Shown: positions 1 through 16,800 of the stretch, piece by piece
Layout of the letters: every line of letters begins with the position of its first letter
How positions within the stretch are numbered: the first letter of the stretch is position 1
Source: a virus
Taxonomy: Duplodnaviria; Heunggongvirae; Uroviricota; Caudoviricetes
Length of the DNA: 64,000 nt
Virus record (IMG/VR): IMGVR_UViG_3300027708_000034
Span: 18,332 to 82,331 of that record
Strand: one strand, 5' to 3'
The notes under the pieces: model-generated
Seen by the model: only the letters and a program-made list of their open reading frames with translations
The model's database searches: none
Told to the model about the DNA's origin: nothing
Translations under genes and position numbers: made by a program

Positions 1-312
1 CTACAAGATTACTGGTCCATTGAACAATGGCAAAAATGCATCGATAAACTGGATGAAGGTCACCACGATACAGTTGGTTGTCTATACAGAGAGTTTCCTT
101 TAAACCATTTTAGTGGTAATGTATATTGGGTAAAATCCAGTTTTATTAAAAAGTGTAATAAATTACCGCTATGTGATGCCAATCGAATTCCAAATGAACT
201 ATGGCCGGAAATGTGGGTCGGGGCTAATGGTGCAAAATTTTATAGTTTTCATGATACTTCACATAATCTTTACTATGTAGAGTATCCCCCGGATCGTTAT
301 AGAATCAAATAG
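1..312 (+). CDS. Hypothetical protein, 5'-truncated at the window edge (C-terminal ~103 aa, ends at TAG 310-312)
   Basis: Open frame 1 from the window start to a stop at 310-312. No recognisable motif. It is one of the few plus-strand genes. Confidence 0.35.
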   Translation, partial: LQDYWSIEQWQKCIDKLDEGHHDTVGCLYREFPLNHFSGNVYWVKSSFIKKCNKLPLCDANRIPNELWPEMWVGANGAKFYSFHDTSHNLYYVEYPPDRYRIK

Positions 313-318
313 ATTCCA

Positions 319-984
319 TCAGGGCGGCAACGGTGCATCCGGGATTCTAAATGCCTGATTAACTGGTATTTGCTTTTTATCAAACACAATGATACTGTCA
401 TAAAAACTTATACAGAATGTGTCTCTTGTAAAAGACGTTGGCTTAATTGTGAAATTACTATGCCAAACATGATCAGCGGCAAGTGAATCAGTTATTGCTT
501 TGACCTGATTAATGAATGACATGGGATTAGACAAACTGTTCCCGTGCGGCGCTTCATAAGTTCTGTGTAGATCTTCGACAAAATAACACCCATTCTCTGT
601 TACTTTAGAATATAAAAAATTAAAAGTCGCTGTTATATGATCGCTAATGTGGCTACCGTCGTCGATAACTATATCAAACGGGCCAAATTCATCGATTACT
701 CGTTGTAGGAATTCTGTATCAGTCTGATCCCCAATGCGTACATGTGTGCCAGGTGGTTCATGACGGGCGCAATTGGGATCAATATCGATTCCCACGATGG
801 TAGACCCTGGTCCAAAATAGTCTCGCCACATTTGTAAAGATCCCCCATGTTCAACTCCTATTTCTAAAACAGTAGCTGATTTGCCTTTCCATGGCGCAAA
901 GTGTTTTTCATATATGGGAAAATAGTTCACCCATTTGTGAATAGATTGTCCAGTGTTGTTTAACCAATATTGTTGTAAGTCCAT
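319..984 (-). CDS. Class I SAM-dependent methyltransferase (CmcI/TylF-like O-methyltransferase fold)
   Basis: VLEIGVEHGGS glycine-rich SAM motif I and a downstream acidic IDDGSH motif. Size 221 aa is typical of sugar/glycan O-methyltransferases. Confidence 0.6.
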   Translation of the reverse strand: MDLQQYWLNNTGQSIHKWVNYFPIYEKHFAPWKGKSATVLEIGVEHGGSLQMWRDYFGPGSTIVGIDIDPNCARHEPPGTHVRIGDQTDTEFLQRVIDEFGPFDIVIDDGSHISDHITATFNFLYSKVTENGCYFVEDLHRTYEAPHGNSLSNPMSFINQVKAITDSLAADHVWHSNFTIKPTSFTRDTFCISFYDSIIVFDKKQIPVNQAFRIPDAPLPP

Positions 985-992
985 TTTATCTC

Positions 993-1925
993 CTAATATT
1001 TTGTTATCACATTTAAAAAGTAATCAGCCAGCGCATCAGTGGTACAATATTTTTCAAAATGTATTTGTATTTGGTCATTTATCTCATACCAAAAATCTTT
1101 TCCTGAATCAGTAGTAAACCAATCTATGCCCAAATCTCTTGCTTGTTTAACGGTTTTGATCAGTACCTCTTTGGGCATTGTGGTCATGATGTCATCCGGA
1201 CATTGTTCTATGTCCAGGAATAGCGGCACGCAATTATTGGCCATAATTTCATAGTGTCGAACACAATCCCAACCATTCTTTTTCATAGTTACACCAAACA
1301 TACTTTCTGCATACTGTTTATAATATGCATCTTCTTGAGTATATATGTAAGTTGATGGATCTCTAGGATCCATCGGGGCCAATAATTTATCTTTATCAGT
1401 TTCGATAGTACCAATTTTTTCCTTGGGCATCGCAAAATTTATAGGATGCAAACCGGTATAAGTGTCTGTTATTTCTCTTTTAAAATATATAGACTTGTCC
1501 ACTGCCCAAGGAGTTAAATCACTCCATAGGTCCCCGCCATCTATCCATGCTATTTTATTTTTAGGATAATGATTAGTTACCAAGTCCCAAGAACCGGGTC
1601 TAAGTCCATAATGTGTATAGCCGAAAATTACTAGATCAAAATATTGATTTTTGATTTTATTCTCAATATCAGTTCGATCTATATTGCTATCGTCTCCCAG
1701 TGTTCGATAGATAGTGAATCCCCTATGTACATCATCACCTAATTTGCCCGGCCCAAAATCACCATAGTACATCCACCATGATCTCTCATATTCCACAACA
1801 CTGTCTCCAAACTTTCCCCTGAGTCCGTGTAGTAACATATCAGTTAGATAGCAAGCACCGCCTGAGCGTCCGCCGGGATATCTTCCAGCAGGCTTCTCCG
1901 GTTCTCTTAATATCAAAATTTTCAT
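993..1925 (-). CDS. Hypothetical protein (310 aa)
   Basis: Long ORF tightly packed with its neighbours (4-nt overlap with the next gene). No motif recognised. Confidence 0.5.
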   Translation of the reverse strand: MKILILREPEKPAGRYPGGRSGGACYLTDMLLHGLRGKFGDSVVEYERSWWMYYGDFGPGKLGDDVHRGFTIYRTLGDDSNIDRTDIENKIKNQYFDLVIFGYTHYGLRPGSWDLVTNHYPKNKIAWIDGGDLWSDLTPWAVDKSIYFKREITDTYTGLHPINFAMPKEKIGTIETDKDKLLAPMDPRDPSTYIYTQEDAYYKQYAESMFGVTMKKNGWDCVRHYEIMANNCVPLFLDIEQCPDDIMTTMPKEVLIKTVKQARDLGIDWFTTDSGKDFWYEINDQIQIHFEKYCTTDALADYFLNVITKY

Positions 1926-2836
1926 AGCAATGTGGCTAACCCTTGATCAAGCATTAGTGATTGTGGGTTGAGACTCATTGAAACTTGAACATTATTGCCT
2001 ACCCTATATTTGTTTAGAACTTCAAAGTTTCTAAAAACGATTTCGCCGGGATTCGAACAAGGGCCGTGATAAAAATAAGTTGCCCAGTCAGTAAAAATAA
2101 ATTCGTGGCCGCCTTTGATCCAGATTCTATCTTTTGGCAGCAACTTACTAGCAAAACATGCTAGGCTGCTTGAACACATGATAGCGGCTTCCGCTCCAGC
2201 AATGATTGGCCAAGTCTCTCTAAGTTTAGTTAGGTTAGTAAGATCCATCAATTTGGGATGAAAAGGTGGAAAATTTTTACTTTTGTTTACAACCACACCT
2301 ATGCAATTGATTGTTTCCAAAAATTGTATGATGTTATTCCAATCAGTATCATCAAATTCTCTTCCACAGATCTCAGCATCACTCCATGGATGTATTACAA
2401 CGTATCGATCAGGTAATTGGAAATTGCTAATGTTCAACCAGTTACGACGAACAGTTGTACACCTGCTGCTTTGCCAACGATGCCCAGCAAATATTCGCTG
2501 CAGGGTAGCATCTAAACTATGATCGCTTATTTCATTGATCTCTGTTTGACTTAAATTTAAATTGCACTTTAGATTCAATTCATGCTTCATTCCTATGTTC
2601 ATAAACCTATCTCCCGGCCGCCAAGGTCTAGTGGGCCTCTCATCGCAGAAATCATCAAACATGATTCGTTCTTCTTTTAGATTAGGGAAGATATCAGTCA
2701 TATCAAATGCTGCTTGGATCTCTTTCCTGTTCCTGGTAGCCCATAAAAGCGTAGTTACTGCATCTTTTTCGGCCTCGGTCATAAATGATTCTGCACCAAT
2801 AAAATCTCCCAGTGCTCCGGTGAACAATGCTTGCAT
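1922..2836 (-). CDS. Hypothetical protein, possibly a GT9 (heptosyltransferase-like) glycosyltransferase
   Basis: The C-terminal segment IAGAEAAIMCSSSLACFASKLL resembles the GT9 nucleotide-sugar binding segment (IAGADLVIGNDSGPMHLAAA). Weak. Confidence 0.35.
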   Translation of the reverse strand: MQALFTGALGDFIGAESFMTEAEKDAVTTLLWATRNRKEIQAAFDMTDIFPNLKEERIMFDDFCDERPTRPWRPGDRFMNIGMKHELNLKCNLNLSQTEINEISDHSLDATLQRIFAGHRWQSSRCTTVRRNWLNISNFQLPDRYVVIHPWSDAEICGREFDDTDWNNIIQFLETINCIGVVVNKSKNFPPFHPKLMDLTNLTKLRETWPIIAGAEAAIMCSSSLACFASKLLPKDRIWIKGGHEFIFTDWATYFYHGPCSNPGEIVFRNFEVLNKYRVGNNVQVSMSLNPQSLMLDQGLATLL

Positions 2837-3010
2837 GTTGATATATCCTTTAATCTAACGTTGCTATTACTTATGTTTCATTTTATTATACTTTAATTTT
2901 TTGTAAAATACAACTCCATGTAGCCATAAATATAGGATTATTGCCAAATCTATGATTAGAAGACTTCAAGTCAATAGCATAAATATCATATTAACTAGGT
3001 ACTCCAAACC

Positions 3011-6000
3011 ATGAGCCGACAATGTATATCGAATTTACCAGCATTAACCAATGCTACTGCTGCTGAAACCAAATTCATCGTACTGGATAGTACTGTTGAG
3101 CAGACATTAACAGTAGCAAGAGCACAGGCGTTACTAGCAACTCCTGGTCCAACTGGACCGCAGGGACCGCAAGGTGTCATAGGATATGCCGGTAGTAGGG
3201 GATATTCTGGAAGTTTGGGATATGCTGGATCTGTTGGTCCACAAGGTCCTGCCGGCCCACAGGGTCCTATTGGGTTTACTGGCAGTCGTGGATTCTCGGG
3301 ATCAGTCGGCGCCCAAGGCCCTTTGGGATTTACGGGCAGCAGGGGATATGCGGGCAGCATTGGATATACAGGAAGTGCAAGCACCGCCTCCGGATATGCT
3401 GGCAGTAAGGGCCCAACGGGTCCACAGGGGCAAATAGGCTATGCTGGAAGTGCAGCAGCCAATGCTAACACCACACAAAATATCGCCGGCGGCGCTGCTG
3501 GATCCATTCCGATTCAAGCAGCCACCAGCAGTACTACATTTATTCCATTGGGTGCTGTAGGGACTCTACTATATTCAGATGGTACTACTGCTACTTGGAT
3601 TAGCACTAGTACTATAATACCAGCATCTTCGGGACAAGCTGGCAAGGTATTGGTTAACTGTATTGCAGCAAACAGCGCCACAACATACTATCCTGGATTG
3701 TTTTCAACTCCGGGAGTATACGACACTCCCGGAATTAGCACAAAACTATCATTTGTTGCATCCACAGGTGTCTTATCGGCACCTAAGATACAATTAGGCA
3801 ATGGAGCAGTAGTTCAAGATGGTACTAACGGATCATTGACCTTCGGCTCAGCAACATCTAATCAAGGGGTCAATGCTGTCGCTATCGGTAAATGTGCAGG
3901 TAAGACTAGCCAAGGCGCAGCCGCTATTGCAATTGGTTGCAAGGCCGGAGTTACTAGCCAAGCCGCTAACAGCATTATATTAAATGCATCTAGTCAAACT
4001 GTAAATTCCAGTGTGGCTGGATTTTTTGTAGCGCCTGTTAGACGTGATAGTACTTGTGCCGGAACAGCTTATTCAATATACTATAATACTGCCACTAGCG
4101 AAGTAACGTATTCTGCTACTGTTCCCGCTGGATATACGGGTAGTGCAAGCACCGCAGCTGGATATATAGGCAGTAGAGGGCCGACAGGTCCACAAGGTCC
4201 ATCGGGGCCTACTGGTCCAACGGGCCCACAAGGGCCATTGGGATATACTGGTAGTATTGGTCCGACTGGTGTAGGACTCAGTGGTTATTTTGGATCAAGA
4301 GGATACACTGGGTCAGTTGGCCCGACTGGGCCTCAAGGTGCTATCGGTTATACAGGCAGCATGGGAACCACAGGCACTACTGGTTATTCGGGGTCAATAG
4401 GGGTGCAGGGCCCACAAGGATATGCGGGCAGTAGAGGTTATACTGGTAGCCAAGGCTCCACTGGAACTACTGGTTATTCAGGGTCAATAGGTGCAGGCAT
4501 TGCACTCAAAGGCACCGCTGCAACTACAGGTACTGGATATTCGGGAATTTATGGAGTCGTACCCCAAGGAACTGCCGTACAAGGCGATGCTGTTTTAATC
4601 AGTTCAAACGAACATTTATGGATCAGTAGCGGTGTTAGTGGCGGCCCAAGCAACCCGTGCGGATGGTCAGACGGTGGAAGTCTAGCTGGACCGCAGGGAC
4701 CGCAGGGATATACAGGATCTGCTGGCGCAGTGGGGCCGCAGGGCCCGCAAGGAATTACCGGCCCGCAGGGACCACAGGGATATACAGGATCTGCTAGCAC
4801 TGCCAGTGGATATGTTGGCTCAACAGGACCAACCGGTCCAACTGGTCCGCAGGGGCCTATAGGGTATGCTGGATCTGCAGGTGCAGCCAGTACAATGAAT
4901 TTCAAAGGAACTGTACTTGGTGTTACCTGTTTGCCAAAAACAGGACAGACTGTTGGTAATGCATGGGTAGTTTACAATGGCGGTTCACCAGGTAGTGGAA
5001 AAAGTTCCAACGGATCTACTTGGTTCTACGTCAATGGCGCAAGTGATGCGGGAAGATGTGTAAGTTGCGGTCCTTATTATGGATTTATTTACATTGGAAA
5101 CTTTACCGGGTATACTGGTAGTAAAGGTGACCTAGGATATTCCGGATCAGCTGGGCCGCAGGGACCTTTAGGATACTCTGGCAGCGGCGGCGGCTTTGGC
5201 TGCAGAGGATATACTGGCAGCATCGGTTATGCTGGCAGTGCTGGATATTGGGGTTCTACAGGCTATGTAGGTAGCCAAGGGACTTCATTTAACATCGTTG
5301 GTACAGTAGCAGGATACTTAAACTTGCCCGGATCAGGATCTGCAGGTGACGGATATGTTACTCAGAACAACAATACTATTTGGTTGTATAAAGGCTATGC
5401 TGGATCTGCATATGCAGGTTGTGGCAGTGCATTGGGCAAACAATATAATGGATGGTTGGCTATCGGACTATTGGGTGGCACTGGTTATACTGGCAGTGCA
5501 GGATACAATGGTAGTGCAGGATATACAGGATCTGCTAGCACCCAAGCTGGTCCACAAGGACCAGCCGGATATTCAGGCAGTGCAGGAGCCGCAGGTTGCA
5601 AGGGCTGTATAGGATACACCGGCAGTGCTGGAACATCGGGTATAGGTACCAAAGGATGTATTGGATTTACCGGTAGTGCAGGTGCTGGTTACGGCGGTAG
5701 TATTGGCTCAACTGGTTATACAGGCAGTGGTGGCGCTGGATATACAGGAAGCATAGGTAACGCCGGTCCACAAGGACCAATTGGATTTTCGGGAAGTGGC
5801 GGCGCTGGATACAATGGTAGTAGAGGATATGATGGATCAGTTGGTCCTAGTGGCCCAACTGGACCTACTGGACCACAGGGGTGTATGGGATACACAGGAT
5901 CTGCCAGCACCGCATCGGGGTATGTTGGTTCAACTGGATTTACTGGCAGTATAGGTAATTTGGGATATTATGGTAGTATAGGTTGCAGGGGATATACCGG

Positions 6001-6691
6001 ATCATCTGGTGCATTACCGTGCTGTGCCGGCCCTTGTAAACTCTACGCAAGAGTTTGGTGTAGTGGTCAAGTTAGAGGACCATTGTTATATCCAACTCTA
6101 GTGGCCAGATCAGGTACATGTACTGTCTACATGTCCGGAGCAAGTCCGTCAAACTTGTTTAGCTTCTGTGCTGCTAACGGTAAAGTAACAATTGGCGGGG
6201 CAGTATGTGCCAACGGCAACATAACCTCAGCTCAAGGCGTCCGCGCCTGCGGGTCCGTAACATCTGTGCAAAAGATGTATGCCCAAGGTGCATTGTGTGT
6301 CACTGGAAAAATCTGTGCATCATCATGTATTTCTACGCTGGGTAGTGTGATTGCCGCGGGCAACGTCATTGGTTATTGTGCAGCTTCTGATAGAAGATTA
6401 AAACAAAACATTAGACCAATCGCAGACGCGTTGGATAAAATTAGAACACTACAGGGTGTATTGTACGACTGGACTGACGAGTTCATGGAAACAGTCCCGG
6501 ATAATATTTCCAGACATGATACCGGATTGATTGCCCAGGATGTTCAGCAGGTCCTACCAGAGGTAGTGTTCCTCAGAGAAAACGGATACTTGGGTATTAA
6601 GTATGACAAAGTCGTAGGATTGATTGTACAAGCAATCAACGAACTAGCAGAAAAAGTAGATGCTATAGAGAAAACTCTAGCATCGGAATAA
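3011..6691 (+). CDS. Collagen-like tail fiber/tailspike protein with C-terminal S74 intramolecular chaperone (auto-cleaving) domain
   Basis: Many G-x-y triplet runs ([20 protein letters not shown]...). The C-terminus has the SDRRLKQNI...LQGVLYDW...[15 protein letters not shown] signature of the phage fiber chaperone/peptidase S74 domain. Confidence 0.85.
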
Positions 6692-6692
6692 G

Positions 6693-6989
6693 TTATTCTG
6701 ACGCATTAGCTCTAAACTTGTAGCCTTCTCCACTGTGTAATACACAGGCCATGTTTCCATCGTATTGAACTACGGTCCAAGTTAGGGTCGTGGGGTTTAC
6801 CATTACTACTGTATCAGTTCCGGTTTCTTCATCCTTACCGGACCAAATTGGTTTTTCTTTGGCAGCTTTAGTCAATGTTTCAAGAACAAATTTAGTCTTG
6901 CCGCAGGTAAATTTTCTTTCATATTCACTTACTTGAGCACCAGCAACGGAGCTGATTAGGCACAGCACGGCCAATAATAGATATCTCAT
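6693..6989 (-). CDS. Small secreted protein (signal peptide MRYLLLAVLCLISSVAGA)
   Basis: N-terminal hydrophobic signal with an AxA site. Convergent with the collagen fiber gene. A late-promoter-like TATAAATA lies 21 nt upstream. Confidence 0.5.
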   Translation of the reverse strand: MRYLLLAVLCLISSVAGAQVSEYERKFTCGKTKFVLETLTKAAKEKPIWSGKDEETGTDTVVMVNPTTLTWTVVQYDGNMACVLHSGEGYKFRANASE

Positions 6990-7010
6990 GGGTCACCCCT
7001 CCTTGTTAGA

Positions 7011-7018
7011 TATTTATA
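7011..7018 (-). promoter_or_regulatory. T4-type late promoter motif TATAAATA (minus strand), followed by SD AAGGAGG and the ATG of the 98-aa secreted protein
   Basis: Plus-strand tatttata = TATAAATA on the minus strand, 21 nt before the start codon at 6989. Confidence 0.45.
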
Positions 7019-7069
7019 GCCAATATATTATTACGCTTGTGTTAAAAAATATTAAATATTTTTTACTTC

Positions 7070-7077
7070 TATAAATA
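7070..7077 (+). promoter_or_regulatory. T4-type late promoter motif TATAAATA (plus strand), 16 nt upstream of the 7094 ATG, with a GAGG SD
   Basis: Exact TATAAATA. Divergent from the 7011 motif, so the pair may form a divergent late promoter. Confidence 0.45.
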
Positions 7078-7093
7078 AAACGAGGAAAACAAT

Positions 7094-7702
7094 ATGACCA
7101 TACTTGAAACATTAAAAGTCCAACGCTGGGACGATCACAGATATTACCATCATAGCCGAATCAATCAATTCTTACATTTAATCAGTGCCCTATCATTCAT
7201 AGTAGCCTACATTTATCTGTTTATCGATCCTGTTGTCAGTGCTTATATAGCATGGTTGATATCCATGACCACAAGACAGGCAGGACATTTTTTCTTTGAA
7301 CCCAAAGACTACGACACTTACAATCAGGCCACACAAGATCACAAAGAGGCTATCAAGATTGGATACAACCTCAAACGCAAACGAGTATTGATCGCTTGCT
7401 GGTTGGCTGTGCCCGTGCTGGCATACTTTGATGCGGCATTGTTTAATTTTGTCATGCCAGACGCTGCTCCAGACACATTGCTGGATAGAATTGGATGGGG
7501 ATGGTTATGGCTGGCTGTGGTTGCTGTGGTGTTCCGCATGATACAACTCACTGCCATACAGAGCCGCAGAGTTGCTATAGTATGGTGTATCAAGATATTG
7601 ACAGATCCATTCCATGATGCTGTGATCTATCGCAAGAGCCCGATCTATTTGTTGAAGGGTCAGTTGATTGATCCTGACCTACGCCAAGACTACGAAGATT
7701 GA
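7094..7702 (+). CDS. Integral membrane protein (possibly DUF962/Mpo1-like)
   Basis: Several hydrophobic helices. N-terminal HHSRINQFLHLIS histidine-rich segment. Low certainty on family. Confidence 0.5.
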   Translation: MTILETLKVQRWDDHRYYHHSRINQFLHLISALSFIVAYIYLFIDPVVSAYIAWLISMTTRQAGHFFFEPKDYDTYNQATQDHKEAIKIGYNLKRKRVLIACWLAVPVLAYFDAALFNFVMPDAAPDTLLDRIGWGWLWLAVVAVVFRMIQLTAIQSRRVAIVWCIKILTDPFHDAVIYRKSPIYLLKGQLIDPDLRQDYED

Positions 7703-8691
7703 ACTGGAGTAAGGTTGCTGCGGAATATACGCCAGGCATTGTCCCAGGACCATCTCTGGCTACCCACTAGGACCTGATTGCGATCTAACTTCAACGCTGC
7801 GTCTACAGCATCTTTAAGGTTACCACGGATACAACCAGTGACACCATCGTCGACTACATCTTCAGGTCCTTGGCAAGGATATGCTGCTACAGGGGTGCCG
7901 CAGGCCATGGCTTCGATCATGACTATACCAAATGTTTCCCATCGGCTGGGAAATACAAACACTTCTGCATTGGAATAATAACGTGCCAAGTCTATACCGG
8001 TCTTAAATCCTGTAAAGTGTACATCAGGATAACGCTTGCGATATGTTTCTAACATGGGTCCATCGCCTACCATGATCTTCTGATATCCTGGATAGTCCAG
8101 TTCGAAGAAATCTTCCAAATTCTTTTCTTTGCTGACACGGCTAACACACAGTAGATATTTGCCAGGAAAGTCTTCTCTCAAATCCGGTCGGAATATATCA
8201 CGATCAACACCGCGAGTCCAAGGAACCACCTCGCCACGGAATCCATGTCGTTCTAATTCTCGTACCATGCTGTCAGTAGTGGTCAACACACGGCCACTGT
8301 GCTTATGGAACCAACGAACGAATCTCCATGTGATCCATTCTGGTATACCAAACAGTTTCTTTAGACCTTCAGGAAACTTAGTATGATAAGCGGTATTGTG
8401 CCTAATATTATATAATGAAAGATACTTTCGAGACCACAGACCAAGAGGACCTTCTGTCGCGATGTGGATATAATCTGGATTGATCTCCGCAATCTTCTTG
8501 CCCAAGTTCCGGGGATAGGCAATCTTGACTTCGTTATATTTAGGGCAATCAATGTAGCGGAACCACCCGGGATGAAGCACCACAAAGTTATAACCGTCCA
8601 GAACCGCACATGTCTCAATATTCTTATATGTCGTGACAACGCCATTGATCTGATCCGGTAGATTATCAGTTATTATTAATATCGTTTTCAT
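7690..8691 (-). CDS. Glycosyltransferase family 4 (GT-B, GT1 superfamily)
   Basis: C-terminal VFVFPSRWETFGIVMIEAMACGTPV (EX7E motif region) typical of GT4 retaining glycosyltransferases. Confidence 0.8.
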   Translation of the reverse strand: MKTILIITDNLPDQINGVVTTYKNIETCAVLDGYNFVVLHPGWFRYIDCPKYNEVKIAYPRNLGKKIAEINPDYIHIATEGPLGLWSRKYLSLYNIRHNTAYHTKFPEGLKKLFGIPEWITWRFVRWFHKHSGRVLTTTDSMVRELERHGFRGEVVPWTRGVDRDIFRPDLREDFPGKYLLCVSRVSKEKNLEDFFELDYPGYQKIMVGDGPMLETYRKRYPDVHFTGFKTGIDLARYYSNAEVFVFPSRWETFGIVMIEAMACGTPVAAYPCQGPEDVVDDGVTGCIRGNLKDAVDAALKLDRNQVLVGSQRWSWDNAWRIFRSNLTPVQSS

Positions 8692-9578
8692 TGTATCTTC
8701 AATTTAATGAAATCAACAATGTGTTGTGCCATGTCCTGCCCACAATGCTTATCCATTCCTTTGAATCCAGGACTGCTGTTTGCCTCACATACTTTATACC
8801 CATCTTTATCGAATAATAAGTCAACTCCTGCTATCTGTAGGCCTAGCACACGAGCAGTTTCTCTTGCGATATAATCAATCTCCGGCGTGATATTAAATAA
8901 TTCACCGTGACCGCCTTGGCTGATATTAGCGCGGAAGTCTCCTTCTGCCCCTGTTCGTTTCATGGCTACGACGGTTTTACCACCTATCACCCATACTCTT
9001 AAATCAGTTCCTGGCATGGCATCTACAAATTCTTGTATGATCAATGTTTTCTTTAATGCTATGCTTGATAGCAATTCCATTAGACCTTCGAAAATTTTTC
9101 GTGTCTCGCATAGATAAACTGTCTTACCTCTACTGCCGCTAGTGGCTTTTACTACGCATGGAAACCCAATCTCTTTTTCAATCAACTCAATATCAACATC
9201 TCCGTTGACCAATATAGTTTTAGGAATAGGTAAACCTGCGCTGGCCAATACTTGACTGGTCATTAATTTATCACTAACTATTGCCACACTTTCGGTATCG
9301 TTAATAACCGGCACGCCTAACTTTTCAAACTGACGCATCAATGCCAGTGTAAAATAAGCACTACCTGATCCGGTTCGGCTTAATATCAAATCTGGTAAAT
9401 CGATCTTTTCGCCCCGATATCTGATACTTTTAGAATTTCCACGATTGACAATAATATCAAAATATTTTGGTTCAAGTATTTTGCTATCTATTCCGTTCTG
9501 TTGAAGACATTCAATCAGTCTGGTATTTTCATAAGCAGTAATTCCACTAGCGTGATGAAGTATCCATACTCGTTTCAT
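8688..9578 (-). CDS. rimK: RimK-like ATP-grasp ligase (alpha-L-glutamate ligase family)
   Basis: Colinear with E. coli RimK: DFRANISQGGHGE and EANSSPGFKGM motifs at the ATP-grasp C-terminus. Size 296 aa. Confidence 0.85.
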   Translation of the reverse strand: MKRVWILHHASGITAYENTRLIECLQQNGIDSKILEPKYFDIIVNRGNSKSIRYRGEKIDLPDLILSRTGSGSAYFTLALMRQFEKLGVPVINDTESVAIVSDKLMTSQVLASAGLPIPKTILVNGDVDIELIEKEIGFPCVVKATSGSRGKTVYLCETRKIFEGLMELLSSIALKKTLIIQEFVDAMPGTDLRVWVIGGKTVVAMKRTGAEGDFRANISQGGHGELFNITPEIDYIARETARVLGLQIAGVDLLFDKDGYKVCEANSSPGFKGMDKHCGQDMAQHIVDFIKLKIQ

Positions 9579-10359
9579 TTTCGTCCTTTTCTTGAGTCCA
9601 TGTAATTATTTCCCATGTACCGTCGTGATGTTCGACTAGCGCAGTACACGATTCGACCCAGTCACCGTCATTCATATATTTAATACCATCTATGGTCTTG
9701 ATCTCGGCATGATGAATGTGTCCACATATCACCCCATCGAACCCACGCTTCTTACAATAGCCTGCTAGATTACGTTCAAATTGAAACATGAAGTCAATGG
9801 CCTTCTTCACACGCTGTTTTAAGTATTGACTCAAACTCCAATAACCAAATCCAAACTTGTGTCGTAACCAATTGAATCTAGTGTTCCATATCAAGATCCA
9901 GTCATAAGCAGTATCGCCTAAAAAACTCAACCACGGCGCTAGTCTAGTGATGCCATCGAACATGTCTCCATGCACTACGAGATAATGTTTACCGTCCGCA
10001 CCTATGTGTTCGGTTTGATTACATATCTCTATCAAGCCAAAACTGAACCCATATGGGATCATGGGCCGAAGAAATTCGTCATGATTGCCAGCCACATACA
10101 CAACCCTAGTGCCACGTTTAGCATGACCAAGAACACGGCGAACCACGTTAGTATGGCTTTGTTTCCACCGCCACTTGTTTTGTTGGATTCTCCAGGCATC
10201 GATAATATCTCCTACAAGGTATAGGGTATCACAGGAATTATGTTTGAGAAAGTTGTTGAGCTGGTCGGCTTTACAATCTCTAGTACCGAGATGGACATCA
10301 CTGACGAAGATGGATCGGTATGTCTTCATAACCATATTTACTGCAAAAATGGGGTTCAA
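9547..10359 (-). CDS. Calcineurin-like metallophosphoesterase, LpxH-like (UDP-2,3-diacylglucosamine pyrophosphatase family)
   Basis: FVSDVHLG...YLVGDIIDAW...AGNHDEF...VVHGDMFDG...GHIHHAEI matches the LpxH motif order (DLHL...ILGDLFEAW...GNRDF...MHGD...GHTHRP). The true start may be an internal Met. Confidence 0.55.
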   Translation of the reverse strand: MNPIFAVNMVMKTYRSIFVSDVHLGTRDCKADQLNNFLKHNSCDTLYLVGDIIDAWRIQQNKWRWKQSHTNVVRRVLGHAKRGTRVVYVAGNHDEFLRPMIPYGFSFGLIEICNQTEHIGADGKHYLVVHGDMFDGITRLAPWLSFLGDTAYDWILIWNTRFNWLRHKFGFGYWSLSQYLKQRVKKAIDFMFQFERNLAGYCKKRGFDGVICGHIHHAEIKTIDGIKYMNDGDWVESCTALVEHHDGTWEIITWTQEKDENETSMDTSSR

Positions 10360-10391
10360 ATATTACAGTTCTATTAAACAGGTATATTAAG

Positions 10392-10399
10392 TATAAATA
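10392..10399 (+). promoter_or_regulatory. TATAAATA motif immediately upstream of the 10405 ORF
   Basis: Exact 8-mer 5 nt before the ATG. Either a late promoter for a transcript with almost no leader, or the real start is the second Met. Confidence 0.25.
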
Positions 10400-10404
10400 T
10401 TATA

Positions 10405-11052
10405 GTGAAAAAGCCCAAAATAGCAGTATTCATGCATCAACCCATGTGCTCGGTACAATCGGGCAACGGGATCATTAACGCCCTAAAATCACACTACGAT
10501 TTCAAAATATTCACCAAACATGAATTAGAGTCTGTATTCTTCAAAGATGTTGATATGGTTGCCTTTCCCGGTGGGTTTGGCAATTCTGATAGTTATGACT
10601 ACTTGCTGAAAATAAACGGCGACCCCATAAGGGAATTTGTCGATCGTGGCGGCAAGTATCTAGGCATTTGTATGGGCGCCTATTGGACCGGCAGTCACTA
10701 CTTTGACCTGCTGGATGGCATTGATGCTGTACAATACTACAAACGACCCACGGCCTGTACACATCGCCCACATACAAAGGCCATGCCCGTGACATGGAAT
10801 GGGCGGCCTGAAAAGATGTTCTTCAATGATGGATGCACCTTTGTGGGCAACCCTAAAAAGTATGAAACCATAGCCACTTATTCAAATGGTGATCCAATGG
10901 CCATCATACAAAACGGTATGGGATTAGTCGGCTGTCATCCAGAGAGCGAACAGTTTTGGTATGACAGTTATCGTTGGATGCCACCACATTGGCATGAGCA
11001 CAGACATCACAGCCTATTGCTTAAATTCGTGGACCAGCTGATGCAGCGGTAG
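10405..11052 (+). CDS. Class I glutamine amidotransferase-like protein (GATase1/BPL_N-like)
   Basis: GICMGAYW nucleophile-elbow (G-x-C-x-G) and an upstream AFPGGFG motif. The 3' end overlaps the convergent minus-strand gene by about 30 nt. Confidence 0.5.
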   Translation: MKKPKIAVFMHQPMCSVQSGNGIINALKSHYDFKIFTKHELESVFFKDVDMVAFPGGFGNSDSYDYLLKINGDPIREFVDRGGKYLGICMGAYWTGSHYFDLLDGIDAVQYYKRPTACTHRPHTKAMPVTWNGRPEKMFFNDGCTFVGNPKKYETIATYSNGDPMAIIQNGMGLVGCHPESEQFWYDSYRWMPPHWHEHRHHSLLLKFVDQLMQR

Positions 11053-12727
11053 CAGCTTTAGTACCCATTGGTATTTTAGATCCATCTGGCTTATTTAGAT
11101 TTTGTATACCCGGGGGATCTTGTGTAGTCGGCACAGGTTGCTGTTGTTGTACCGGTGCAGGTTGCTGTTGTACTGGTGCAGGTTGTTGCATAGTTTGCTG
11201 TTGAACAGGTTCTGATTGATTGGGATTCTGTTCTATATAGTTTTCGATATCGGCAATATTCTTTAACAACGGACCCATATTAATTCTATTTCTAACAGCT
11301 TTTGATCTATTATCAAATTGAGATCTAAGATCAATCAATCTAGCTGGATCACCTCTTGATGGGGTGAATTTTTTGGCCAAATCAGTTTTAGGCAATCCGT
11401 ATATAGAAATTACATATCCCTTTTCTTGTCTCAGCTCAACAAACAATTTAAGTTGTTTTAGTGCTTGTTCGAACTCTGTTCCAAAAGACAACTCTGCAAA
11501 GGCTCTTTTACTATCCGGTTCTAAGATAACCATTTCAACGCCTTCTTCTTTTCTGGTCAGATGTGTTAGTAATCCTTGATAAACATTTTCAATAAGGCTG
11601 TCTGGATTGCTTTTTGCCAAAACTTGTAACTGTTTGCTAATGTATTGATAACTATGAGAAAAAGCATTTTGAAAGTTTTGTTCTTTTTTATCATTCCAAG
11701 TAGCAGGTGCTTTGTAAGGAATTTCGTAGAATTTTTTTCTAAGATCTTCTGATAATGGTATTCCTACAATAGAGGTAAAAAAATCATTTAAGTTATCAAA
11801 ATTATGTCCGCCGGCCTGTCCAAACTGTTCAACGCCGCCTGCCTTAACACTTAGCAGTCTCTTTGCGGTTTCTTTACCGTCGATTAAAATCTTCAAGTCT
11901 ACCTTGGTTGTATTTTGATTTTCTTTTTCTGCACCATCGCTGATGACATCGATCTTATTTTCTCTCGGGTCCGTTACTGCTTCGTTAACTGCGCCAGATA
12001 TGCGTTTGGATTTATTAGCATATTCAATTGCACTTTTTAAACGTTGATCAAAAAGTGCAATTTTGTCTTTAGGAACATTATAGTCTTTTAAAGTTTTTCC
12101 TCTACTGTCTTCATTTAACCAAGCATAAAATGCTTTATTATCCATGAAGGGAATACTTACTTTAAACTCTAATATATCTTTTCCTGCTTGAATTTGTATA
12201 CTTCCTTTATTTCTTGCCAACTCTTTGGCTATGCTTATTACCTGCATTTCTGTAATAATTGAACCTTGGTTGGAAAATTTAGCAGCGACAGCACACCCTA
12301 AAATTGCCTCGGATACATTTCCCATGTTAGGATCAATTTCACCTTTGACTTTTTCATCTTTATAAATTTGTTTTGGAATAACATTTTCCCACTCTTCGCC
12401 AGTAGGTTCGAAAGTCTGATCATCAACTTCTGCCACAGTGAAAAACACATTACTGAAGTCTTTAAGTTTTATAGCACGTTTCATTTGTGCGATAACATTC
12501 TCAGGGTTTTGTATAATTCCTAAAAATCTATTCTCAGTTTTTTCTGCTTTTCTTGAACCGGGCAACTTTTCAGAAGTTACAACATTGAAAGCATACACTT
12601 GATTGTTAATTAACCCGTCAAAAAATAAATTATAATACTGAGGTTTAAGCCAATCGTTATCATTGCCTGTCTGGCTCATGAGCTTTTCAAGTAGTATTGA
12701 TTCGGATAAAAATTCTCTTGCTCGCAT
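11021..12727 (-). CDS. Putative head internal protein with T4-like capsid targeting sequence (start taken at MRAREFLSE)
   Basis: The N-terminus MRAREFLSE resembles the T4 internal-protein capsid targeting sequence MKTYQEFIAE, including the L/I-x-E prohead-protease site. C-terminal PAPVQQQ repeats. It is the last gene of the dnaK operon. Confidence 0.5.
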   Translation of the reverse strand: MRAREFLSESILLEKLMSQTGNDNDWLKPQYYNLFFDGLINNQVYAFNVVTSEKLPGSRKAEKTENRFLGIIQNPENVIAQMKRAIKLKDFSNVFFTVAEVDDQTFEPTGEEWENVIPKQIYKDEKVKGEIDPNMGNVSEAILGCAVAAKFSNQGSIITEMQVISIAKELARNKGSIQIQAGKDILEFKVSIPFMDNKAFYAWLNEDSRGKTLKDYNVPKDKIALFDQRLKSAIEYANKSKRISGAVNEAVTDPRENKIDVISDGAEKENQNTTKVDLKILIDGKETAKRLLSVKAGGVEQFGQAGGHNFDNLNDFFTSIVGIPLSEDLRKKFYEIPYKAPATWNDKKEQNFQNAFSHSYQYISKQLQVLAKSNPDSLIENVYQGLLTHLTRKEEGVEMVILEPDSKRAFAELSFGTEFEQALKQLKLFVELRQEKGYVISIYGLPKTDLAKKFTPSRGDPARLIDLRSQFDNRSKAVRNRINMGPLLKNIADIENYIEQNPNQSEPVQQQTMQQPAPVQQQPAPVQQQQPVPTTQDPPGIQNLNKPDGSKIPMGTKAATAASAGPRI

Positions 12728-12737
12728 AGTAGTATAT

Positions 12738-13409
12738 TTATACCACTTCTGGGAACAGGACTTCGTCCACAAACCGCTTCATCTTAGATTCATCTATGCC
12801 CATACTGACCATGCTGCGTATGACATGGGGGTTTTGCTTTTGATAATAGCAATAACGGTTCTGCGCCATATGGAAATCTGCTAGATCCTGCTGCGTATTG
12901 CCTACATTTAATAGATAATAATCCAAGGTTCTTGTGGCCAGCTCGCATAGATTATTCAACTCTTCCTCGGTTGATACATTGCCAGCAGCAACCATGTTGG
13001 GACTAAAAATTTGCTGAGCCCATTCTGGCAGATTCCTAGACTTACCCCACTCGTAAAACAATGCTTCGGTCCCGAACCACTTCATCATAGGATGGGCAGG
13101 ATCTCCTGCTGCGCTGAAGTCGCAGAATGCACCTGTGATTTTATTGGGACCGCAGACTGCATCAAAGCCCCAAATAGGGCTAGGATCGTTAAAGTGTGGA
13201 AATACTGTAGAGTGCAGTATATAGATATTGTGGCTCTCCCTATGGTCTACGATTTCCACATGGGCTCTGCGATATCGCGGGCTGGTCCAAAGGTCATTGT
13301 GCCATTCATAATCACTACTGATCTTGCCGTGTACAGCCTCACCGGTGGCATTGAATCTCGATTTGATATCCTCAGCTAATTTTTCAATTTTGTCCCAAAC
13401 GTTCGCCAT
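12738..13409 (-). CDS. Ferredoxin-dependent bilin reductase (PcyA/PebS/PcyX family)
   Basis: WTSPRYRRAHVEIV...ILHSTVFPHFNDPSPIWGFDAVCGPNKITGAFCDFS aligns with the PcyA core (YQTPQFRKMHLEL...ILHCVMFPEP...[20 protein letters not shown]). Confidence 0.85.
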   Translation of the reverse strand: MANVWDKIEKLAEDIKSRFNATGEAVHGKISSDYEWHNDLWTSPRYRRAHVEIVDHRESHNIYILHSTVFPHFNDPSPIWGFDAVCGPNKITGAFCDFSAAGDPAHPMMKWFGTEALFYEWGKSRNLPEWAQQIFSPNMVAAGNVSTEEELNNLCELATRTLDYYLLNVGNTQQDLADFHMAQNRYCYYQKQNPHVIRSMVSMGIDESKMKRFVDEVLFPEVV

Positions 13410-13926
13410 ATGATTCCATTATTTTAATCGCCCAGTCAAAGGCTATGTTAGCTTCATCTCCCATGTCGTCTGACAGCATACTACGCATATTAGTCATCAA
13501 CATTTTAGGATCTTCAAAGTCTAAATGTGAGTGCGGTGCGTCCACGATCTTCTTGATCATCTGCCCACCAAACAAGTCGCCCATATGCCAAGTGTATAAG
13601 TGTGCCATGATGCGTTTAGGATCATCTAGTGATCTAATGTAGCTGGCGTAATCCTTTGTCTCTTGCTTATATGTATTGTAACTACCCGTGGGTTTATCCA
13701 TGCTTTGGTAATCATCCATTATCAGTCCTGCCCGTTCAATCCCGGGCAATGCATTTAGCAATCCTGCTTTTCGAGCAGCATGTTCGATCTCTTTATACCA
13801 AAGTTGTTTTTGATAGGTAAAATCTACCCATAGTTCAAAGGGCAATGTTTTGTCAAATACTGCTTTCATGAAAGCAGTGCTTTCGGCAGCAGTGTGTTTG
13901 TCTTTGGTGAGATCTTTTAGGCTCAT
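13384..13926 (-). CDS. Heme oxygenase (short phage-type HO)
   Basis: LKDLTKDKHTAAESTAFMKAV matches HO-1 LKEATKEVHTQAENAEFMRNF. AHLYTWHMGDLFGGQMIKKI matches [20 protein letters not shown]. Confidence 0.85.
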   Translation of the reverse strand: MSLKDLTKDKHTAAESTAFMKAVFDKTLPFELWVDFTYQKQLWYKEIEHAARKAGLLNALPGIERAGLIMDDYQSMDKPTGSYNTYKQETKDYASYIRSLDDPKRIMAHLYTWHMGDLFGGQMIKKIVDAPHSHLDFEDPKMLMTNMRSMLSDDMGDEANIAFDWAIKIMESYGERLGQN

Positions 13927-14225
13927 TCCTGTACTGCCTTAGTGACCAAAGGATGACCGTTTAGTCTAGACAGCTCAGTGGCCTCTGCGACTTTCTGTTC
14001 GGCGATTTCATAACTGTAGATGCCCACTGCCGCACTACCTTGTTCATGAATCTGATAAGTCAATCTAATAGCAGATTCAGTGCTTATAGAAAACACCTTA
14101 ACCAGCAATGCTATCACAAATTCTACAGGAGTATAATCGTCGTTCATGACGACTACTTTATATTTGCTAGGTTCTTTTAACTTCCTAGTAACTCTTGTTT
14201 TTTCTTCAATTGCAGTATCAGTCAT
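13923..14225 (-). CDS. clpS: ClpS ATP-dependent Clp protease adaptor (N-degron recognin)
   Basis: YKVVVMNDDYTPVEFVIALLVKVF...GHPL is colinear with E. coli ClpS ([24 protein letters not shown]...EHPL). Confidence 0.85.
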   Translation of the reverse strand: MTDTAIEEKTRVTRKLKEPSKYKVVVMNDDYTPVEFVIALLVKVFSISTESAIRLTYQIHEQGSAAVGIYSYEIAEQKVAEATELSRLNGHPLVTKAVQE

Positions 14226-14269
14226 CTAATTCTTTCTTTATAAATGGGGGAGATTTACTCCCCCGATGT

Positions 14270-14704
14270 TTAATCGCCTTTGATAGTTAGTACACGCGGC
14301 TTCAATGCTTCGGGTACCACGCGATCTATTTTAATGGTTAAAACACCATTTTTAATAGCGCCTTCGCCTACGATCATATGTTCAGCCAGTGTCCACGAAC
14401 GAGTAAAGTCGCGGAATGCCAAACCACGGTGTAGAAATTCAGCATCGACATCACTGTCTTTGCTGCGAACACCTTTAACGATCAATTGGTTTTGATCGAT
14501 CTCAACCGCAACTTCATCCTTGGCAAAACCTGTCACAGCGATTTCGATCTCGTAAGTATCTTCATCGTGCTTGACGATATTGTAAGGTGGATAGCTGTTG
14601 TTGATTTGATTTGCAAAACGATTTTCGAAATCGTTGAACATGGTATCAAAACCTAGTAGTGCTCTATTAAGAGCATGGGTGTCAAAACGTACTAATTGTG
14701 TCAT
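14270..14704 (-). CDS. Small heat shock protein Hsp20 (IbpA/IbpB-like)
   Basis: FDTMFNDFENRF...YPPYNIVKHDEDTYEIEIAVTGFAKDEV...VPEALKPRVLTI is colinear with E. coli IbpA (alpha-crystallin domain, IxI-like C-terminus). Confidence 0.9.
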   Translation of the reverse strand: MTQLVRFDTHALNRALLGFDTMFNDFENRFANQINNSYPPYNIVKHDEDTYEIEIAVTGFAKDEVAVEIDQNQLIVKGVRSKDSDVDAEFLHRGLAFRDFTRSWTLAEHMIVGEGAIKNGVLTIKIDRVVPEALKPRVLTIKGD

Positions 14705-14791
14705 ATTTTTCTCCTTTAAAAGTAAGTGACAACATTGGGCATTGTGCCCTATAAAGTGGGACCCTAAATAGGTATCCCACGATATTATTTA

Positions 14792-16771: not shown

Positions 16772-16800
16772 AGTATAGCTAGATTAGCTGGATGTGTCAA
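16772..16800 (-). promoter_or_regulatory. Sigma70-type promoter for dnaK (minus strand: TTGACA-N17-TATACT)
   Basis: -35 TTGACA (RC of 16795-16800), 17-nt spacer, -10 TATACT (RC of 16772-16777). Sits about 70 nt upstream of the dnaK ATG. Confidence 0.5.

Follow-up and report, generated by a model that had tools for sequence, protein, structure and literature searches.

A predicted copy of the plcP-agt lipid-remodelling operon of bacteria beside the fibre gene of a large freshwater T4-like phage

In Bacteria, plcP followed by agt on the same strand is known as the 'type 2' plcP-agt arrangement (Sebastian et al. 2015), whose characterised examples include Agt PB7211_960 (GTcp) of Ca. Pelagibacter HTCC7211 and PA3219/PA3218 of P. 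aeruginosa. SMc00171 of S. meliloti and Agt of A. tumefaciens are further characterised examples. Such operons act under phosphate starvation, when the phospholipase C PlcP and Agt replace phospholipids of the membrane by glycolipids free of phosphorus. Characterised PlcPs share just 46-47% identity with one another (PMC8528852). Among aquatic myophages, T4-like cyanophages and pelagiphages carry host-derived phosphate-stress genes (pstS, phoA, phoH). Pelagimyophages also possess a host-recognition hypervariable cluster in which glycosyltransferase and methyltransferase genes adjoin the fibre gene and the cassette is swapped between close relatives. We found no description of a phage plcP-agt operon in the literature searched.

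The window analysed here, a stretch of 64,000 nucleotides of IMG/VR record IMGVR_UViG_3300027708_000034, belongs to a large freshwater T4-like phage and encodes a ribonucleotide reductase as well as baseplate and virion proteins. Related contigs reach 324-513 kb. A sequence-only reading had proposed that envelope-modifying genes form a single unit around the collagen-like fibre gene. All the ORFs and motifs that it listed are indeed present, and its family calls are correct at the superfamily level. The single unit did not withstand comparison with an independent 87-kb JGI contig (L094): the left cassette is missing from this closest relative, whereas its right block matches at 97% identity in the same gene order (96.9% DNA identity over 7011-11090). 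The recurrence of this block in an independent contig also rules out a mis-join of host DNA, which that reading had considered. The region is thus composed of two unrelated modules, A (319-2836) and B (6693-11052), flanking the fibre gene, which is 84.8% identical to its L094 counterpart at the DNA level and separates the conserved block from the variable cassette (Table 1). 'Envelope modification' holds for the region in a broad sense only, as the chemistry proposed for the conserved right half does not.

Table 1. Features of the fibre-flanking region (coordinates in the window)
Feature	Position	Strand	Remarks
MycE/TylE-like class-I SAM sugar O-methyltransferase	319..984	-	First of the genes listed for the variable cassette
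GT-B fold glycosyltransferase	993..1925	-	Outside every described sequence family
GT9-fold (heptosyltransferase-like) protein	1922..2836	-	
Collagen-like tail fibre with C-terminal intramolecular chaperone	3011..6691	+	Pfam Collagen E 1.2e-50, Peptidase_S74 E 3.5e-18
98-aa protein, signal-peptide-like N-terminus	6693..6989	-	Single hydrophobic segment, residues 2-22
TATAAATA (T4-type late-promoter motif)	7011..7018	-	21 nt ahead of ATG at 6989
TATAAATA	7070..7077	+	16 nt ahead of ATG at 7094
202-aa polytopic membrane protein (predicted)	7094..7702	+	About four hydrophobic segments
Agt/GTcp-like GT4 diacylglycerol glycosyltransferase (predicted)	7690..8691	-	Pfam GT4 domains; Trp-Glu signature
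RimK-family alpha-L-glutamate ligase	8688..9578	-	Translationally coupled between plcP and GT4
PlcP-type metallophosphoesterase phospholipase C (predicted)	9547..10359	-	Calcineurin-type
TATAAATA	10392..10399	+	5 nt ahead of GTG at 10405
Class-I glutamine-amidotransferase-like protein (BPL_N type)	10405..11052	+	GTG start; Cys-His-Glu triad

Module A is an ordinary swappable, hypervariable glycan cassette, as found beside the fibre genes of aquatic T4-like myophages; its glycosyltransferases, one with a GT9 fold and one GT-B enzyme that is unclassified, set it apart from the pelagimyophage cluster, which has GT8. Its methyltransferase is barely above the Pfam Methyltransf_24 cut-off (27.2 versus 26.3 bits) and matches CmcI weakly. 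It aligns with phrog_21658, a methyltransferase family (E 1.8e-22), and its best solved relatives are MycE (PDB 3ssm, E 4.9e-24) and TylE (8ia9, E 1.1e-21). Modification of surface glycans or of the fibre by fibre-adjacent glycosyltransferases is possible for this cassette only. That its target is the phage's own fibre and not a host surface polysaccharide is possible but the less likely reading, since LPS heptosyltransferases are the best structural matches of the GT9-fold protein and glycosyltransferases beside the fibre of pelagimyophages have been interpreted as O-chain modifiers (PMC7029224).

In module B, the metallophosphoesterase had been taken for an LpxH, with a precursor of lipid A as its substrate. 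LpxH is indeed its nearest solved and curated family, public annotation pipelines label it LpxH/lpxH, and the two proteins share the calcineurin-type fold as well as an insertion between motifs IV and V. However, the similarity to solved LpxH structures is weak (E 3.5e-5, about 22-26 bits), and the protein scores 45 and 35 bits against LpxH equivalog models whose cut-offs are 134 and 190, that is, at most a third of what the family demands. In contrast, a genome scan retrieved 80 proteobacterial homologues sharing 49-61% identity with the phage protein, among them those of Ca. Pelagibacter, Pseudomonas, Methylocystis, Mesorhizobium and Caulobacter. We therefore rejected the LpxH assignment in favour of PlcP. 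All five metallophosphoesterase motifs are invariant, and dN/dS is 0.015 (versus L094). The true start is likely the ATG at 10335 or 10329, homologues beginning at residue 9-11.

These data also bear on the proposal that this enzyme, together with glycosyltransferases rebuilding the LPS core or O-antigen, would mask receptors. The heptosyltransferase-like fold in module A speaks in its favour, but this cassette and the right block are not inherited together; the genomic partner of the phosphoesterase is agt and not lpx genes, and the annotated ORFs of the window include no further gene identified as belonging to the lipid A pathway. For module B, the LPS/LpxH reading is largely refuted and we regard it as scarcely credible.

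The GT4 enzyme, previously proposed to build LPS core and O-antigen, turned out to be of the Agt type, the partner found directly after plcP in bacterial operons. In 65 of 80 cellular loci, the gene directly downstream of plcP, with the same orientation, encodes a full-length homologue, and the phage protein (333 aa, versus 334 aa for GTcp) is 36-43% identical over its full length to the GT4 encoded downstream of cellular plcP. Fifteen residues of GTcp have been studied by mutation. With residue numbering taken from the Pelagibacter orthologue L091, the phage protein is identical to GTcp at 13 of them (G16, G82, G85, H104, T162, R163, R190, K195, T257, F258, G259, E264 and W320), and mutation of GTcp at these conserved positions abolished activity (PMC8231724). 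The UDP-binding residues are conserved and the diacylglycerol-contacting residues are kept, except for Leu56, replaced by Ile; T162, R163 and W320 line the predicted diacylglycerol groove. The two other residues, the otherwise invariant catalytic Thr-Asp of GTcp, are changed into Trp-Glu (T255W, D256E). This signature is found in 42 of 44 viral copies and in none of 60 cellular ones, and suggests a sugar donor or kinetics differing from those of bacterial Agt. Moreover, D256E deprives GTcp of over 90% of its activity (PMC8231724), and the phage enzyme may therefore make other lipids than GTcp or use another acceptor. The gene evolves under purifying selection (dN/dS 0.12, n=42).

Altogether, homology, conserved operon order and intact catalytic motifs identify the PlcP-RimK-GT4 operon, as judged from sequence comparison, as a captured phage copy of the bacterial plcP-agt phosphate-starvation lipid-remodelling operon. 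The two systems have in common both enzyme families, their order and their strand, and the identity of the phage proteins to bacterial ones (49-61% for PlcP, 36-43% for GT4) is within or above the range between characterised members. The phage operon differs from its bacterial counterparts by its Trp-Glu signature, the absence of a Pho box, phage-specific companions (the GATase1-like gene and the genes of the 202-aa and 98-aa proteins) and, in this lineage, the RimK insert.

The intervening ligase is a genuine RimK-family member (NCBIfam rimK_fam 218 bits, cut-off 143; PDB RimK structures, E 2e-51 to 2e-46), scoring below the S6-ligase equivalog cut-off (175 versus 331 bits). The sequence-only reading tied it to the fibre or to LPS. 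Such a tie is not borne out, as homologues occupy unrelated contexts in marine cyanophages: the 'S6 glutaminyl transferases' of S-RIM8, S-RIM12, S-RIM32 and S-CAM8 have the same Rimk_N and ATP-grasp architecture and 45-47% full-length identity. While the neighbourhoods of the cyanophage genes are unrelated, RimK is inside or abutting the plcP-GT4 operon here and in 7 of the 80 best IMG/VR loci, and it occupies the same slot between the two genes in six of these 80 and in L094. RimK genes are familiar from phages, but this one recurs between plcP and GT4. Most simply, it would be a separate host-takeover gene glutamylating ribosomal protein S6 and riding in the operon. The lipid-remodelling reading offers no explanation for RimK, and its insertion counts against that reading.

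Phage plcP is widely distributed, with at least 572 IMG/VR contigs and at least 8000 protein clusters, and is recurrently linked to pstS and lipid genes. GT4 directly adjoins plcP in 29 of the best 80 IMG/VR loci, and also in related contigs L003-L011. In 40 of 75 IMG/VR loci having room for a downstream gene, plcP has no GT4 partner closer than 8 kb; glycolipid synthesis is thus not obligatory for the phage function. A fatty-acid desaturase is found near plcP in 13 of the best 80 loci and pstS in nine, the latter also adjoining the module in L004, L005, L007 and Pelagibacter phage Mosig.

The companion genes recur as well. In 27 of the best 80 IMG/VR loci, the GATase1-like gene (Pfam BPL_N E 8e-11, GATase E 2e-5) is no more than 8 kb away from plcP. 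Its Cys89 does not vary, and 8 of 9 phage copies that were aligned have the HPE motif. Distant homologues of the 98-aa protein (27-37% identity) occur within the same distance in eight of the 80 loci, and also in L011. The 202-aa protein is highly conserved (95% identical in L003-L007; dN/dS 0.05) and weakly resembles Mpo1-like/DUF962 proteins (Pfam Mpo1-like E 6e-4, under the cut-off). The same weak match is seen for a 51%-identical cellular homologue, which lies within a cluster of PlcP, PS-decarboxylase, methyltransferase and GT4 genes.

As had been noticed from the sequence, two divergent TATAAATA motifs precede the 98-aa and 202-aa genes. The motif occurs 10 times in the window, where 4.2 occurrences are expected, and 0 of 100 shuffles reach this number. 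In module B, it precedes only these two genes and perhaps the GATase1-like gene; none lies upstream of the PlcP-RimK-GT4 operon on its own strand. One would not expect this of a lysis factor, and it weighs against PlcP attacking the membrane in lysis or host shut-off, with a GT4 whose acceptor is no lipid but, for instance, the collagen-like fibre or some other protein. The fibre gene is only 1 kb away, plcP often occurs without GT4 and the GT4 catalytic signature is unlike that of every cellular Agt, all of which would suit such roles. Nevertheless, plcP-GT4 adjacency is held where the fibre gene is absent, and T162, R163 and W320 of the predicted groove are kept in GT4. We consider this explanation very unlikely.

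We favour instead, with a probability of roughly 0.65, module B as a phage plcP-agt operon remodelling host phospholipid to glycolipid for phosphorus. For this genome, the link to phosphate stress is only circumstantial, as we detected no Pho box near the operon and no pstS in the 64-kb window. Both absences would also fit a plcP-agt chemistry serving membrane properties and not phosphorus saving. Its aim might then be to prevent superinfection, to change how readily the cell lyses or falls to predators, or, along with the desaturase, to adjust membrane physics. The desaturase, membrane-protein and secreted-protein genes near plcP in relatives are in line with this, and lipid remodelling in bacteria is reported to alter phage attachment and susceptibility to antibiotics or predators (PMC9938194, PMC8528852, PMC9457565). 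However, pstS adjacency recurs across several lineages, and plcP alone, as in many phages, would destroy phospholipid and build no new surface lipid. Besides, glycerolipids of the inner membrane make poor receptors for a tailed phage infecting a Gram-negative host. This alternative thus appears unlikely, though it deserves more weight than those involving LPS or lysis.

For phosphorus scavenging, we propose the following scheme. PlcP would cleave the phosphodiester of host glycerophospholipids into diacylglycerol and a phosphorylated head group. Phosphatases of the host could then release phosphate from the latter. The Agt-like GT4 would glycosylate the diacylglycerol using a UDP-sugar, and the resulting phosphorus-free glycolipid would refill the membrane, which would stay intact. 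Like the phosphate-stress genes of cyanophages and pelagiphages, to which it is physically linked through pstS in Mosig and several relatives, phage plcP-agt plausibly eases the phosphorus limit on phage replication. Unlike pstS, phoA and phoH, it would target an internal phosphorus pool, the membrane phospholipid, and not uptake. As the 'LpxH-like' and GT4 genes make up a plcP-agt copy, the phage probably strips phosphorus from the host membrane instead of rewriting LPS, and the phosphorus saved or released would supply its very large nucleotide demand.

The ORFs that a sequence-only reading had named between 319 and 10359 are all present, in a large T4-like phage whose window has genes for ribonucleotide reductase and for baseplate-wedge and virion proteins, and the G+C content over the region (~0.38-0.51) is comparable to that of the remaining window. 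While they had been treated as a single LPS/envelope-modification block around the collagen-like fibre gene, the comparison with L094, an 87-kb JGI contig assembled independently, leads us to divide the block. Indeed, DNA identity between L094 and the window is 96.9% over 7011-11090 and 84.8% in the fibre gene, with no match over 1-2953, so that two parts with different histories, modules A and B, lie on either side of the fibre gene. L094 carries the fibre, 98-aa, 202-aa, GT4, RimK, metallophosphoesterase and GATase1-like genes in the order of the window, and continues in the same way with an unannotated ORF, bilin reductase, heme oxygenase, ClpS, HSP20 and HSP70. Since this independent contig reproduces the order at high DNA identity, and the order is common to many viral contigs, the mis-joining of host DNA, under which the earlier reading would have fallen, is ruled out. 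Megablast of window 1-11100 against phage genomes gave no match; relatives were thus found through proteins.

Coordinates of the features discussed, in the window and in compared loci
Feature	Location	Strand	Remark
Module A	window 319-2836	-	three genes, abutting or overlapping
ORF of module A	window 993-1925		
GT9-like ORF of module A	window 1922-2836		
Collagen-like fibre gene	window 3011-6691		
Module B	window 6693-11052		
98-aa protein	window 6693-6989	-	
TATAAATA site	window 7011	-	
TATAAATA site	window 7070	+	
202-aa protein	window 7094-7702	+	
GT4	window 7690-8691	-	
RimK	window 8688-9578	-	
PlcP	window 9547-10359	-	
GATase1-like protein	window 10405-11052	+	
583-aa ORF	window 11021-12772	-	phrog_3560
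TATAAATA site	window 12735-12742	-	
Host-like run	window 12738-16693	-	
GlutR_dimer-domain ORF	window 16784-17245		
Second metallophosphoesterase	window 18786-19601	-	calcineurin-type, 271 aa
Rubrerythrin	window 25249-25698	-	
Porin ORF	window 27370-28260	-	296 aa
tmRNA	window 32432-32907	-	permuted, two-piece
plcP, pstS	L001 (Mosig) 6930-8765		
plcP	L002 (S-SRM01) 6028-6732		
Curli genes	L011 1859-7236		379-kb phage contig
Lipid-gene cluster	L088 5611-11860		Pseudorhodoplanes MAG
RimK	L101 8743-9624		
RimK	L153 8788-9630		
Locus of a GT4 without Trp-Glu	L172 8928-9929		
Locus of a GT4 without Trp-Glu	L174 8922-9908		

On the minus strand, from 10359 to 7690, the PlcP and RimK genes share 32 nt and the RimK and GT4 genes 4 nt, and the overlap at both junctions indicates that these three genes form one operon. 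The first encodes a calcineurin-type metallophosphoesterase (Pfam Metallophos, E 3.9e-10) with all five motifs of the family (D-x-H, G-D, G-N-H, H, G-H-x-H) intact; D21/H23, G50/D51, G91/N92/H93, H130 and G213/H214/H216 are invariant over the phage copies, including those of the cultured phages Mosig and S-SRM01. In both cultured phages the gene is annotated as LpxH (UDP-2,3-diacylglucosamine hydrolase/diphosphatase), one viral study files it as 'lpxH, lipopolysaccharide biosynthesis' (PMC9611531), and the sequence-only reading likewise saw an LpxH-like phosphoesterase of the lipid A pathway. We reject this identity: the protein scores 45.3 bits against a cut-off of 134 for NF003743 and 34.6 against 190 for TIGR01854, far under the curated cut-offs of both LpxH equivalog models, and its match to solved LpxH structures is weak (E 3.5e-5, 26 bits). 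By identity and structure-database scores it is more similar to PlcP orthologues than to LpxH, a closeness judged on proteobacterial homologues, with the characterised PlcP sequences entering via their published identities only. The window also encodes a second, separate metallophosphoesterase of the calcineurin type.

In bacteria, PlcP is experimentally established as a phospholipase C yielding diacylglycerol, which Agt/GTcp converts to monoglucosyl- and glucuronosyl-diacylglycerol during phosphate starvation (PMC8231724, PMC8528852). Scanning one genome per bacterial species, we found 80 loci with a PlcP homologue at 49-61% identity, all from Proteobacteria and including Ca. Pelagibacter, Pseudomonas, Methylocystis, Mesorhizobium and Caulobacter. 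A full-length GT4 homologue (36-43% identity) lies directly downstream on the same strand in 65 of them, a layout that Sebastian et al. 2015 (PMC4796936) described as 'type 2' plcP-agt. Among characterised proteins, identity is 46-47% for PlcPs and 35-41% for Agts (PMC8528852); judged by sequence, the phage PlcP and GT4 are no more distant from their cellular homologues than characterised members are from one another. As for linkage to a gene for non-phosphorus lipids (agt, btaAB), the phage GT4 shares its operon with plcP. The first gene of the operon thus matches bacterial PlcP and is predicted to act as a phospholipase C.

The phage GT4 (333 aa, against ~334 aa in the Agt/GTcp group) has the GT-B two-domain layout, with Glyco_transf_4 and Glycos_transf_1 domains. 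We transferred the mutagenesis map of GTcp, the characterised Ca. Pelagibacter Agt, via the GT4 of the Pelagibacter locus L091, because its N-terminus (MKILIVT...) and its Asp at 256 agree with published GTcp. G16, G82, G85, H104, T162, R163, R190, K195, T257, F258, G259, E264 and W320 are identical in the phage protein, and T162, R163 and W320, predicted to hold diacylglycerol, are so in 9/9 phage copies examined. The position of L56 is occupied by Ile or Val, and the UDP-binding motif GRVAxEKN becomes SRVSKEKN, with R190 and K195 retained. Within the catalytic dyad His104-Asp256, the histidine is kept (H103 in the phage protein) and the aspartate is changed (D256E). Glutamate is what canonical GT4 enzymes have here, Glu316 of MshA being an example. 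All 60 cellular copies read FPSxTDTFG, against FPS[RK]WETFG in 42 of 44 viral copies; the window has FPSRWETFG, that is T255W with D256E, and so departs from the catalytic signature of Agt/GTcp. In GTcp itself, D256E removes >90% of activity, and no crystal structure of a lipid GT4 was available as of the 2021 study of that enzyme (PMC8231724). As one defining feature strictly fails, we regard the phage GT4 as a sister variant of Agt/GTcp, which would resemble Agt in its working and might use another sugar donor.

In two further viral loci, L172 and L174, a phage-type PlcP (80% identity) is followed by a GT4 that is 50-53% identical to that of the window and bears the cellular-type Thr-Asp or Ala-Asp rather than Trp-Glu; these loci may have exchanged the partner gene, or may keep an older state. 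Purifying selection is evident from dN/dS, which is 0.12 for GT4 (n=42) and 0.05 for the 202-aa protein, while PlcP compared with L094 gives 0.015; the PlcP value comes from this one close pair because dS is saturated in most PlcP pairs (80-88% aa identity).

The RimK ATP-grasp ligase proposed from sequence holds: the protein combines Rimk_N (PF18030) with the RimK ATP-grasp domain (PF08443), passes the family cut-off (TIGR00768, 218 bits vs 143) and matches the Pseudomonas RimK of the PDB at E 2e-51. It falls below the S6-ligase equivalog (NF007764, 175 bits vs 331) and is also over the cut-off for the Pfam 'sugar-transfer associated ATP-grasp' model (38 bits vs 31). The gene stands between plcP and GT4 in the window, in L094 and in 6 of the best 80 IMG/VR loci, and after GT4 in a seventh. 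Two RimK lineages, mutually 47-51% identical, occupy this same slot (the window on one side, the viral loci L101 and L153 among the compared copies), between flanks that are 82-86% (PlcP) and 83% (GT4) identical, and they are as distant from one another as from cyanophage RimKs. The 'S6 glutaminyl transferase' of cyanophages S-RIM8, S-RIM12, S-RIM32 and S-CAM8 is 45-47% identical to the window protein, and these homologues stand in unrelated gene contexts, which argues for an independent role in host takeover. The ligase could conversely be a working part of the lipid pathway, in which the Trp-Glu GT4 would make a uronic-acid or otherwise carboxylated glycosyl-diacylglycerol that the ligase would amidate with an amino acid, be it glutamate or another; the product would be a glycolipid decorated with an amino acid and specific to the phage. 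This would explain the presence of two divergent lineages in one slot, the change of the GT4 catalytic signature throughout the main phage clade and the pass of the sugar-transfer model; we nevertheless hold it to be very improbable.

Among the other genes of module B, the GATase1-like protein keeps an invariant nucleophile cysteine (GICMGAYW), with the HPE motif in 8 of 9 copies, and is probably, from these motifs, an active amidohydrolase or amidotransferase. The 202-aa membrane protein keeps 95% identity in phages where that of GT4 is no more than 66%. It shows a weak Mpo1-like similarity (E 6e-4), as does its cellular homologue (51% identical) in L088, which clusters with PlcP, phosphatidylserine (PS) decarboxylase, methyltransferase and GT4 genes; a lipid-related role is plausible. 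The L088 cluster itself comprises PlcP, a phosphatidylserine-decarboxylase-like protein, a SAM methyltransferase, the Mpo1-like membrane protein and an Agt-type GT4, and suggests a lipid-remodelling gene set broader than the two-gene operon.

In phages, plcP is widespread: all 8000 scored candidates lie at E<=1e-10, the best 120 of these 8000 being 82-88% identical, and the gene is carried by at least 572 IMG/VR contigs and by thousands of protein clusters. For both PlcP and the 202-aa protein, the best 120 matches listed are all at >80-93% identity; with only such close relatives among them, these searches are of no use for protein naming or deep alignment. The related contigs, which measure 324-513 kb, clearly belong to phages: small ORFs are numerous, a gp38-like gene is present, and curli genes occur as they do in pelagimyophages. 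GT4 directly adjoins plcP in the related phage contigs L003-L011 and in 29 of the best 80 IMG/VR loci; within 8 kb of plcP, these 80 loci also hold GATase1-like (27), fatty-acid desaturase (13), pstS (9) and rubrerythrin (6) genes. L004, L005 and L007 have the genes arranged as GATase1-like, PlcP, GT4, 202-aa protein and PstS, and in L003 and L006 the gene in the PstS position is without PBP_like_2 annotation. Pelagibacter phage Mosig has plcP divergent beside pstS, the phosphate-binding protein gene, and Synechococcus phage S-SRM01 has it amid photosynthesis genes; GT4 is absent from both, where plcP stands alone. In L011, CsgF, CsgG and a curlin-repeat protein lie just upstream of the plcP-GT4 pair, resembling the curli cluster reported in pelagimyophages. 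The window rubrerythrin is 67% identical to the one adjoining plcP in L008.

The homology to plcP-agt, the conserved order, active sites intact save for Trp-Glu, selection, abundance and the recurrent linkage to phosphate-uptake and lipid genes form the basis of the scheme that we infer for the infected cell. PlcP would hydrolyse phospholipids to diacylglycerol and phospho-head groups, from which host phosphatases would free phosphate for nucleotide synthesis, and GT4 would cap the diacylglycerol with a sugar so that the membrane lasts until lysis. Phages with plcP only would presumably draw on glycosyl- or betaine-lipid enzymes of the host, or withstand the diacylglycerol.

The main rival explanation is that an altered membrane composition is itself the goal, and not phosphorus. 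Against a phosphorus purpose in this genome, the Pho box CTGTCATNNNNCTGTCAT (gammaproteobacterial consensus, <=3 mismatches) has 3 sites in the window vs 7.9 expected and none near 6600-11200, and the window holds no homologue of its relatives' pstS. A Pho box bears on regulation, not on structure. Homologues of the relatives' LysM protein and desaturase are likewise absent from the window. Over 6600-11200, neither sigma-70-like promoters nor terminators are enriched. The T4-type late-promoter motif TATAAATA occurs at 10 sites in the window vs 4.2 expected, a number reached in 0/100 shuffles. The divergent pair reported ahead of the 98-aa and 202-aa genes is confirmed, 21 and 16 nt upstream of the respective start codons, as putative promoters; the motif perhaps also precedes the GATase1-like gene, and none lies just upstream of the PlcP operon. 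A further copy stands directly upstream of an internal ATG of the 583-aa ORF, which has a Gln/Pro-rich repetitive C-terminus (PAPVQQQ...), and this ATG may be the true start.

With respect to the host, the permuted tmRNA (tag peptide ANDELYSIAA; Rfam tmRNA_permuted 122.6 bits, alpha_tmRNA 67.8 bits) matches the alphaproteobacterial model and the closest plcP donors are Alphaproteobacteria, and these sequence hints make an alphaproteobacterial host more likely. A cyanophage identity was rejected, no photosystem genes being seen in the window. The porin ORF is over the cut-off for Pfam Porin_1 (E 1.8e-9), the family of Gram-negative porins; an outer-membrane porin encoded by the phage could be a further nutrient-uptake gene, for instance of the phosphate-porin type. 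The host-like run of ferredoxin-dependent bilin reductase, heme oxygenase, ClpS, HSP20 and DnaK/HSP70, in the same order as in L094, is similar to heme-catabolism cassettes reported from freshwater phages (PMC11480375), and a GlutR_dimer-domain ORF lies beyond it.

Module A is a variable cassette. The O-methyltransferase assignment stands, and the GT9-like one is probable. The methyltransferase belongs with the sugar O-methyltransferases of MycE/TylE type (PDB 3ssm, E 4.9e-24; 8ia9, E 1.1e-21), with a Pfam Methyltransf_24 match barely over the cut-off. The module contains one glycosyltransferase beyond those clearly named in the title of the sequence-only reading, and ORF 993-1925 gave no match by tblastn against isolate phages. 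At this position L094 has other genes, GT17, two methyltransferases and others, a replacement that recalls the behaviour of the hypervariable host-recognition cluster described in pelagimyophages (PMC7029224). The target of module A may be either host glycans or the fibre.

Bacterial PlcP-Agt chemistry and the phage phosphorus-stress genes pstS, phoA and phoH are already known; a full-text search of non-subscription literature returned no report of a phage-encoded plcP or agt. What is new here, with activities as predicted, is that viruses carry such a lipid-remodelling operon, in which a ligase is inserted and the catalytic change is specific to the clade. The replacement of phospholipids by glycolipids is a main answer of aquatic bacteria to phosphorus scarcity, and the ratio of glycolipid to phospholipid is used in the field to indicate phosphorus stress. 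Should the operon be carried by a very abundant group of large freshwater phages, infection itself would drive lipid remodelling, and membrane phosphorus would be a resource mined by phages for DNA synthesis. The plcP signal in the environment would then be misassigned in part, and so would viral 'lpxH / LPS biosynthesis' counts such as those of Lake Baikal viromes. Finally, the clade-wide switch from Thr-Asp to Trp-Glu is a natural experiment on the donor specificity of lipid GT4 enzymes.
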